64,000 nt of DNA from Moniliella sp. 'wahieum' (Eukaryota): assembly GCA_003971905.1 (NCBI GenBank), contig RSEE01000012.1:744001-808000 (forward strand), read 5' to 3'. The position numbers and the translations under genes are program-made. Below are positions 1 through 2,784 of this stretch, piece after piece. The number at the start of each line of letters is the position of its first letter. Position 1 is the stretch's first letter. The notes below the pieces were generated by a model, which was given only the letters and a program-made list of their open reading frames with translations, did not search any database and was not told the DNA's origin.

Positions 1-1082
1 CGTGGCCCAATACGCGAAGCGTAGCCACCGCCCTGGCAAGCTGGACATAGTTGCTGCCGTGACTGTGGCTTGGGCGGGAACTGACACTCAAACAGGTGAG
101 CTGAACACTTATAATGGAAGGCAAGCGAAATGCTTTGTCCATAAGGTCGAGAACGGGACGCCAGCTGCGATCGTGGGCCTGAATATGAGCATAGGGAAGA
201 CAGTGGGCTAGGATCGCCGGTAACCAAATCCGGTCTTGCGGGGAAATTCTTGCTTCAAGCTCTTCAGCTTGGACGGCAGAATCCGTTCCGGGAATGGAGA
301 CAAAGGAAGTGATTGTTTGCGATATGGATGAGAAAATTGGAAGGGCCAGAGCGGTGCGTTCGAAGCTAGACCGCGGTATACGCAAGGTCAGTACCAACCC
401 AAAAAACTGTTATGATGTTCGGAGACGTCATACTTTTTGTAGAGCTCTGCTCGCTCTGCAGCAGAAAAAGAGCCGATGATCCGATGCAATTCAGAAAGAG
501 GAAGAACGTAATGCGAAGAGTACAGGTTGCGATGGTAGACAAACAGTGCATTTGGGCGTCCGTGTTGGGCGACCTCTCGCACAGAGACGAAAGGCCGCTC
601 CTCTCCTTCGTTCGAGTGGTCGTGGGGCTAAGCACCTTGGGCAAGTCGTCAGCCAAAAGCGTTTGACGCAGCTCCTCTCCAGGCCCCGGAGGCAACAACT
701 CCAGGTGCCTTGCGCCTTCTTCCTCATTCGAGGGATCGCAGCGGCTAAGCACCTCGGGTAAGTCATCGGCCAGAAGCGTGTCGCGCTGCCCCTCACCAGG
801 CCCCGGAGGCACCAGCTTACGATGCTTGTCACATTGAGGATCGGACATTAAGGACCGTCTGGATTTGTGGCGATTGAACGAGGGTTGGTCAAATGTGCAC
901 ACCATCCCTTGCGAGAAGCACCACACGCACACATCGTTCTGGGGGGAGGGCCGACACCCCCGCTTGGAGCGGCGGCATTGGTCACAAGGACGGTTCAAGC
1001 GAGAGCGATAGGCCCTTCCCTCGGGAACTTCGGGCGCCGGCCGCTTTCTGCTGGTTCCAGCGTGTGGTGAGCTTGTTGGCAT
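1..1082 (-). CDS. Zn(II)2Cys6 (Gal4-type) fungal transcription factor, 3' part runs off the left edge of the window
   Basis: ATG at 1082 (MPTSSPHAGTSRKRP). Six-Cys cluster CDQCRRSKRGCRPSPQNDVCVWCFSQGMVC in ORF 366..1103, preceded by a basic RAYRSRLNRP. Downstream coding is split by frameshifts or introns. Confidence 0.85.
626..817 (-). repeat. Diverged internal duplication (117-bp period) within the TF coding region
   Basis: ggctaagcacc...ccaggccccggaggca occurs at 626 and 743, encoding LVPPGPGEGQRDTLLADDLPEVLS and LLPPGPGEELRQTLLADDLPKVLS. Confidence 0.85.
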
Positions 1083-1250
1083 GCGACAAATCGAGCAGCG
1101 CAACCAGATGGTGTTGGTTAGGGTGTCGTGGCCAAATGATCACTGATCCGACCGGAAGTGCCGCAGGCAACGTTAGATCTTTGCAATTTCAGGTTCTGGC
1201 TCTGAGATCTGAGGTCTGAGGGCTGGGGACCAGATATCTGACACAGCCTC

Positions 1251-1264
1251 TTGCCCGCGGGCAA
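1251..1264. promoter_or_regulatory. Perfect 14-bp palindrome TTGCCCGCGGGCAA, copy 1 (candidate Zn2Cys6 binding site)
   Basis: Exact palindrome with an everted CCG-CGG core in the divergent promoter. An identical copy lies at 1367-1380. Confidence 0.6.
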
Positions 1265-1366
1265 CAAGGGGGAATTGAATATTGACGCGTATTTTGCCTA
1301 TCAGCCTTCTTATCATACTCGTCCAAGCCGCCTCTAGCCAGAAGTGTCCCATATGCCACCCTCCCC

Positions 1367-1380
1367 TTGCCCGCGGGCAA
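1367..1380. promoter_or_regulatory. Perfect 14-bp palindrome TTGCCCGCGGGCAA, copy 2
   Basis: Identical to 1251-1264 and about 75 bp upstream of the ATG at 1456. Confidence 0.6.
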
Positions 1381-1455
1381 TGGCAGCAGCGTATTTAGGT
1401 CTCGTTTCAAGAGGCCATTTCCCGATCCATACCACCCACATTCTCCCTCCTCATC

Positions 1456-2784
1456 ATGCCTGCTCCCACTTCCGACGTCAACACCAAAGCCTTCTGGGCG
1501 AGCGCTGAGCAGGATCTCATGTACACCGGCGTGCCCTACTGTGACCGCATCATTGTCGAGGCCAAGGGCACCCAGCTCATCGACTCGGAAGGCAAGTCCA
1601 TCCTCGACCTCACTTCGGGGCAGATGAGCAGCCTAGTGGGTCATTCCCATCCGGAAATTGTATCGGTCGTCCAGTCCCAGATCACGCAAGTGGACCATCT
1701 GCTGAGCAACATGCTCACTGTTCCCGTGGTGGAGCTGGCACAGCGGTTGGGCGAGATGGTTCCCGCTCCGCTCACCAAGTCCTTTTTCCTCTCCACCGGG
1801 AGCGAGTCGATTGAAGCGGCGATTAAGATGGCCAAGGTCACTACTGGCAAGTTCGAGGTGGTCGCTTTTGGCGCTAGCTACCATGGCCTAACGGGCGCGG
1901 CGGGAAGCGCCACCTACTCCACCGGGCGTGGGAGGTGGCCCGCACATGCCCGGAATGCTCATGTTCCCTGCACCGTATGGGCTGCGGTCCCCCTTCCGCA
2001 CGCCAACAGGCGAGTGGGATTGGAAGGCTGAGATGGCGTATGGATGGGCTTGATCGATGCCCAGAGCACAGGCTCACTGGCTGCCTTTGTCGCCGAACCG
2101 ATTCTGTCTACGGGTGGGATCCTCGACTTGCCCGATGGATACCTCAAAGCTCTCCAGGAGGAATGCCACAAGCGCGGGATGCTTGTCATTTACGATGAGG
2201 CCCAACTGCCTTCCTACGGGACCAACTTTGCTTTTGAGCAGCACGGTGTCGTTCCTGACATTTTGGCCCTGAGCAAGACCCTCGCCGCGCTCTGCCCCTT
2301 GCCAGTGTCACGACAACCGATGCAATCGCTGCCACACTGCGAGAGAAGCGGTTCCTGTGGCTCACAACTCACCTCAACGATCCCTTGGCTGCGGCTGTCG
2401 GTGCCAAGGTCCTGGAGCTGGTAAGCGGGAGAATGTCGCGCAGCTTGCGCAGGAGCGCGGGGTACAGCTCCGTGCCGGCCTGGAGCGCTTGAAGGAAAAG
2501 TACTGGTGCGTGGTCGAGGTCCGCGGGCGAGGGCTGATGCAAGGCATTGAGATCGTACGCGACCCCCACACGCTGGCTCCGGGCCCCGAACTGGGGCAGG
2601 CTGTGGGTCAGGAAGCGATGCGGTTGGGTGTAAGCTGCAACGTCGTCGCGCTCCCTGGTATGGGCGGCGTGTTCCGGATTGCCCCGCCTGTTTTGTTACA
2701 GAGCAGCAGATTGAGTTGGCGCTCGACCTTCTCGACAAAGCTTTCGCGACTGTGCTGGCATCGTGGCCCAACCCCGGCAAGTAA
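1456..2784 (+). CDS. dgdA: 2,2-dialkylglycine decarboxylase (class III PLP aminotransferase), apparently intronless, with several frameshifts
   Basis: Motifs [72 protein letters not shown] (PLP lysine), [13 protein letters not shown] and [13 protein letters not shown] match the DgdA pattern. Spread over ORFs 1456, 2044 and 2357. Stop TAA at 2782-2784. Confidence 0.9.

Follow-up and report, generated by a model that had tools for sequence, protein, structure and literature searches.

The window analysed here, a 64,000-nucleotide stretch of a Moniliella contig, contains a divergent pair of genes that encode a Zn2Cys6 transcription factor (TF) and a dialkylglycine decarboxylase (DGD)-like enzyme, and the promoter they share carries two copies of a rare, perfect 14-bp palindrome. 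We consider the chances somewhat better than even that the pair forms a pathway-specific catabolic module, in which a TF dimer on the palindromes responds to dialkyl amino acids and induces the enzyme, its own gene and a permease, with nitrogen leaving as alanine. In such a module the Zn2Cys6 protein would bind, as a dimer, the symmetric sites with a CCGCGG core that lie between the genes, and the inducer would be an intracellular alpha,alpha-dialkyl amino acid such as 2-aminoisobutyrate (AIB), isovaline or a close analogue. The TF would then switch on the DGD-like gene and probably its own gene too, and the enzyme would decarboxylate its substrate and hand the nitrogen to pyruvate to give alanine, serving both feeding and detoxification.

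The two genes lie head-to-head, with the ATG of the TF gene at 1082 on the minus strand and that of the DGD-like gene at 1456 on the plus strand, and are separated by a divergent promoter of 373 bp (1083..1455, 54% GC). Both palindromes read TTGCCCGCGGGCAA. Copy 1 (1251..1264) is 205 bp before the DGD ATG and 169 bp from the TF ATG, and copy 2 (1367..1380) is 89 bp before the DGD ATG. This anatomy, described in an earlier sequence-only reading as a divergent pair whose 373-bp spacer holds two identical 14-bp palindromes, is confirmed. A weak third half-site with one change in the CCGCGG core (1158..1171, plus strand) may be chance. Between the palindromes, two minus-strand matches to the HGATAR consensus (1298-1303 and 1310-1315) may be nitrogen-repression sites.

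A DGD gene beside a Zn2Cys6 gene, with an associated amino-acid permease, also characterizes the Saccharomyces DGD1-DGD2-AAP cluster, for which AIB induction and a link to peptaibols have likewise been proposed. According to the available text of Tapia et al., 2023 (PMC10169451), DGD1 is an AIB decarboxylase, Dgd2 is a paralog of Cha4 (42-45% identity), DGD2 is needed for AIB induction (31-33-fold relative to mutants, and lost in dgd2 deletions), and the linked permease gene AAP can be deleted without a phenotype. We count the AIB induction by Dgd2 as a precedent for the module. The same text corrects the sequence-only reading in two respects, as Dgd2 is a characterized fungal DGD regulator and the idea of peptaibol scavenging, offered as an inference, is not original but already formulated there. 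The systems differ in that the Saccharomyces cluster has a tandem order (PMC10169451, available text), whereas the pair described here is head-to-head with a short shared promoter in a basidiomycete; the permease is linked in Saccharomyces and unlinked here; Dgd2 is a Cha4 paralog, whereas the window TF resembles the AN7655-type family introduced below; Saccharomyces Dgd1 has W/M/S at positions 138/141/215, whereas the window enzyme has Y/L/T; and a candidate cis-element is at hand here, which for yeast DGD induction the available text of the Saccharomyces paper defers to future work. In the literature searched, which included few subscription papers, no characterized DGD regulator or site from filamentous fungi or basidiomycetes was found, and PMC10169451 was the only relevant account.

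The dgdA-dgdR pair of B. cepacia (PDB 1d7r, 1dka) shares with the window the enzyme family, the residues Q52/K272/N394/R406 and a divergent regulator, and differs in that its regulator is LysR-like and that W138, M141, S215 and Y301 are altered in the window enzyme. The divergent LysR-type gene that the sequence-only reading gave for bacterial dgdA is borne out by a LysR-like ORF at about 32 of 49 bacterial loci, counted by eye. The B. cepacia dgdR product is reportedly called a repressor in the title of a 1990 paper by Keller.

Pairing of a TF with DGD is conserved among other fungi, which supports the sequence-only reading. A metagenome scan for DGD kept 80 loci, six of them fungal-type. At four of the six, L018 and the mutually close L019, L021 and L022, DGD is divergent from a TF that belongs to the same broad family. 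The fungal loci without one are L020, which offers only 538 bp of upstream sequence, and L023; both have, a few kb 3' of DGD, a zinc-cluster-like gene of another kind (L020 4616-6289, L023 10931-12670). Relatives of the L018 TF and DGD homologs have seven locus-tag prefixes in common (FE257, N7513, N7540, N7488, BDV12DRAFT, DPSP01 and ACJ73), and the TF and DGD tags are consecutive in all seven of these ascomycete assemblies; head-to-head orientation is established for the four metagenome loci, and the tag pairs give adjacency only. Five further TF/DGD pairs agree both in species and in the length of their contig. The A. nidulans member of the L018-type TFs is AN7655, which appears in a list of poorly characterized genes in the available text of PMC4117967. 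Genes of this uncharacterized type lie beside DGD-like genes in Aspergillus, Penicillium, Blastomyces and Paraphaeosphaeria. They share with the window an adjacent Y/L/T-type DGD, the head-to-head order where DNA was seen (L018) and the CCGCGG core, found in the spacer of L018, and the sequence around the zinc cluster is also similar (40% over 47 aa); these genes differ in a regulatory region of only 20-24% identity and in L018 cores that form no perfect 14-bp palindrome. We further note that an M19 dipeptidase, an MFS transporter, the TF and the DGD-like gene are clustered at L019 and L021 (357-7326), and an MFS transporter, the TF and the DGD-like gene at L022 (1944-7320). The dipeptidase and transporter neighbors would fit peptide salvage.

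The DGD-like gene (1456..2784, plus strand, without introns) encodes a class III PLP aminotransferase nearest to B. cepacia DgdA. All four tested pieces of the enzyme have B. cepacia DGD as their best PDB match, and the enzyme read with X at its breaks is 64.6% identical to the homolog P0001 and retains 189 of 209 near-invariant columns. No NCBIfam model matched above cut-off, and the ESM Atlas returned family names and nothing further. Of six DGD subsite residues taken from the available text of PMC10169451, all of which are present in yeast Dgd1, the window enzyme retains Q52, K272 and R406 and alters three (W138Y, M141L and S215T). It also retains N394 and carries Y301L relative to the characterized enzymes. 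In an alignment of 117 fungal homologs, drawn from the best 120 of 749 (three dropped by length) and biased toward the query, almost every sequence also has Y/L/T at 138/141/215 and none has W138 or M141; by comparison, W/M/S is found in 73 of the 74 non-fungal-type metagenome loci, which are mostly bacterial-looking. Since W138, M141 and S215 are replaced, we name the enzyme DGD-like and infer its substrate. It belongs to a DGD-like clade of filamentous fungi for which AIB activity is predicted. The proposal of AIB or isovaline as substrate keeps the support of the closest relationship to DGD and of the retained Q52, K272, N394 and R406, and is made less secure by the three replacements, which together with Y301L count against the module as proposed.

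These replacements are the starting point for the best of the alternatives, which we nevertheless regard as unlikely, namely that the regulatory logic is kept and the substrate differs. The Y138/L141/T215/L301 clade would then consist of DGD paralogs for another amino compound, perhaps a dialkyl amino acid that is larger or cyclic, or one freed from dipeptides, and the TF would sense that compound. The near-uniform split between fungal homologs and other loci favors such a change, as do the complete set of subsite residues in yeast Dgd1 and the dipeptidase and transporters at L019, L021 and L022. However, the changes at 138, 141 and 215 are conservative, the four other residues are kept, and the homolog set leans toward the query. 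A filamentous-fungal DGD1 with an AIB phenotype was reportedly characterized by Adachi in 2003 and, if it falls in this clade, would also argue against a different substrate.

In the enzyme tree, whose sequences include no named basidiomycete DGD, the window enzyme falls outside the Pezizomycotina clade, beside one other protein (support 0.725). Horizontal transfer from ascomycetes, a possibility prompted by the best matches, is accordingly not demonstrated by this placement, and it was set aside, with the best matches of the TF being basidiomycete.

The 5' part of the TF gene occupies 1..1082 on the minus strand, and the gene extends about 1.2 kb further, past the start of the window, with its stop at L006:5807. 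Pfam matches Zn_clus with E 0.011 and Fungal_trans with E 0.088, each under the Pfam cut-off; the X-joined reading aligns along the entire profile built from its relatives (166 bits), and these relatives carry PF04082. The six-cysteine zinc cluster (897..986, minus strand) is preceded by an R-S-x-x-x-x-P-type motif common to the relatives, and removal of a predicted intron of 68 nt (366..433, minus strand), supported by consensus signals (GT...CTGAC...AG) and by the profile alignment, would join two homologous frames in phase. With its six-cysteine cluster and middle homology region present, the product is, on sequence grounds, a Zn2Cys6/Fungal_trans factor. In the linker after the zinc cluster (630-815, minus strand) a stretch of about 25 aa is duplicated, 39 aa apart.

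The relatives of this TF number 28 among 1.84 billion representatives, with local identities of 25-38%, and those named come from Kwoniella, Rhodosporidiobolus, Rhodotorula, Tremellales and Mycena. Of 20 that were looked up, the 14 named are all basidiomycete proteins and none is a yeast protein. The window TF is only 20-25% identical to all relatives and scores 61 bits against the AN7655-type family profile. In the TF tree it has a very long branch; a well supported split groups it with the ascomycete proteins, but it lies outside the DGD-linked clade. Orthology to the DGD-linked ascomycete TFs is plausible from these comparisons, and the low identity, the long branch and the basidiomycete best matches weigh against the module.

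The expectation that the palindrome would recur upstream of orthologous DGD genes is not supported in that form. The exact 14-mer is present in none of the upstream regions of DGD at the six other fungal loci, and CCGCGG in one of them (L018); L019, L021 and L022 have a divergent TF but lack CCGCGG, which again counts against the module. The spacers of these three loci carry a conserved block with GATAAG in place of CCGCGG. The spacer of L018, a Penicillium-like locus, contains three CCGCGG, a number reached by none of 20,000 shuffles, and two of these cores have flanks resembling the permease sites described next.

Within the 69.5-Mb assembly the exact 14-mer occurs four times, against a rough expectation from base composition of 0.6. 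The motif is rare genome-wide, which supports the sequence-only reading. Two of the copies are those in the TF/DGD spacer, which is the sole place with twin perfect copies. A further copy on contig C29 lies about 490 bp 5' of a PF00324 amino-acid permease gene, and on C53, the second haplotype of C29, the permease palindrome has one mismatch. Shortly 3' of the palindrome, CGTTTCAAG is common to the C29 and C53 permease promoters and the DGD promoter, where the corresponding CGTTTCAAGAG is at 1403..1413 (plus strand); the combination of palindrome and CGTTTCAAG is found nowhere else in the assembly, and the pattern is post hoc, having been built from these same sites. As the C29 permease with its palindrome matches the yeast DGD1-DGD2-AAP trio, we count it for the module, and this unlinked gene is a probable further target of the window TF. 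An old duplication of 250 bp (74%; L008 4575-4829 and 6114-6368) in the C29 promoter carried a site toward a divergent GH127 gene. Two of three permease half-sites sit in this local duplication, and we rejected them as independent occurrences, just as we rejected the C53 cluster as an additional regulon member because it is the second haplotype, in which one of the sites of the permease promoter differs. The partly duplicated sites and the imperfect palindrome on C53 speak against the module. Eleven other permease loci were scanned to a distance of about 1.5 kb from the stretch that matched, and none has the palindrome.

The fourth exact copy, on C27 (L007 4750-4763), is about 245 bp 5' of a Mac/hexapeptide acetyltransferase gene of unrelated function; this too counts against the module, and the copy may be there by chance. 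One mismatch admits 20 additional sites, of which three were inspected (on C2, C98 and C152); their settings are a retroelement, a long ORF and a stretch that gave no information. Copies of the half-site CCGCGGGCAA number 263 in the assembly, and further clusters of half-sites within 2 kb were not seen by eye among the first 100 of these 263 ten-mers and all 97 with C or T next.

It is also conceivable, although improbable, that the palindromes are bound by an unlinked, general regulator of nitrogen or amino-acid metabolism comparable to Uga3/Dal81 or Pdr, with the neighboring TF being a co-activator or using other sites. The available texts give motifs for yeast PDR3 (TCCGCGGA) and DAL81 (AAAAGCCGCGGGCGGATT) (PMC2626603) and for Uga3 (SGCGGNWTT; PMC4589623) that share the CCGCGG or GCGG core. 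In addition, Dgd2 is functional without its zinc cluster in most yeast strains tested, still inducing DGD1 (PMC10169451, available text), which is also a point against the module. Finally, with up to three related gene sets in the assembly, the permease and acetyltransferase copies may belong to sets that lack the window TF; the TF and the permease may even sit in separate nuclei, a further point against the module. Nevertheless, the flanks are unlike those of all three known motifs, and the Pdr1/Pdr3 element TCCGCGGA is not matched by the window site, CCCGCGGG. We saw no support for a Pdr1/3, Uga3 or Dal81 identity of the window TF, which has all six cysteines. The restriction of twin perfect copies to the TF/DGD spacer and the coupling of a related TF with three cores in L018 favor binding by the neighboring TF.

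Both genes contain reading-frame breaks, which raises the very unlikely case that they are recent pseudogenes and their promoter a relic. The DGD-like gene is broken near 1930, 2049, 2291, 2425 and 2694, and a net loss of 6 nt at about 2205-2220 scrambles the invariant TGVGRT motif; the TF gene has about three breaks. At no less than 4.5 per kb, the density in the DGD-like gene is at the top of the range in the ribonucleotide-reductase control, and this, with the scrambled motif, weighs against the module. Decay would also fit the single copy of the pair in an assembly whose neighboring genes occur in several, and yeast DGD alleles can become pseudogenes (PMC10169451, available text). However, the breaks in the DGD-like gene are all deletions of 1-2 nt or a net small deletion, there are no nonsense codons, most near-invariant columns are kept, and both palindromes are perfect. 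All five ribonucleotide-reductase copies have private small deletions (3, 4, 9, 12 and 3 per 2.3 kb), and because these essential genes are similarly broken, the frameshifts are weak evidence for decay and are probably assembly errors. No second copy of the pair was found in the assembly, but the second-haplotype contig C118 stops about 55 kb from it, which explains the single copy in this gene set.

The related gene sets (on C12, C118, C101, C31, C57, C4, C64, C90, C123 and C72) are 75-85% identical, with haplotype pairs at 92-98%, and C12 has two ribonucleotide-reductase copies at 85% identity. A hybrid, an old doubling, a mixed sample or a misjoin are possible origins. Synteny with gene set B stops past a VWA gene. 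The glycosyltransferase adjoining the pair has its best named matches in Pseudozyma, Moesziomyces, Tilletia and relatives, which marks the host as Ustilaginomycotina-like. Elsewhere in the window, 119 bp without a long ORF (5450-5568) are 90% identical to a stretch of C57 whose flanking genes are non-syntenic, and Rfam gave no matches on positions 1-8000, this stretch included. Positions 17558-18037 are a dispersed repeat that C57 and C4 also carry and that recurs at other places on C12.

The palindromes themselves depart clearly from chance. When the spacer was shuffled 20,000 times by dinucleotides, two identical perfect palindromes of 12 or 14 bp never appeared and such a pair of 10 bp appeared three times, and none of 5,000 shuffled spacers contained a repeated 14-mer. 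The match between the copies spans only 18 nt, flanks included, which argues against duplication of a block. That they are hairpin-type mutational scars or accidents without regulatory role is scarcely credible: the window does contain four more perfect 14-bp palindromes of different sequence, but these two copies are identical, 116 bp apart and without common flanks, and their core is enriched in the L018 spacer and present before the permease.

The pair is a module of a known kind and not a new kind of system. What is new is its host lineage, its changed enzyme pocket, its concrete candidate binding site and, probably, its different TF lineage. A wider proposal, which we advance tentatively and would not expect to hold in full, is that filamentous ascomycetes and basidiomycetes share an uncharacterized regulon apart from yeast Dgd2, comprising an AN7655-type TF, a symmetric WWNN-CCGCGG-NNWW element, a DGD-like enzyme with a remodeled pocket and a permease, joined in some fungi by a dipeptidase and a peptide-type transporter. 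Such a regulon would salvage and detoxify peptaibol fragments of rival fungi, and a regulator would have been recruited three times (LysR, Cha4 paralog and AN7655 type). With the DGD cis-element left open in the available text of the yeast study (PMC10169451), the locus provides an unusually clean candidate, and the conserved TF-DGD pair suggests a testable role for AN7655, an unstudied regulator of Aspergillus and Penicillium. If the module is real, it would offer an AIB-inducible promoter element and a pointer to how fungi handle peptaibol residues.
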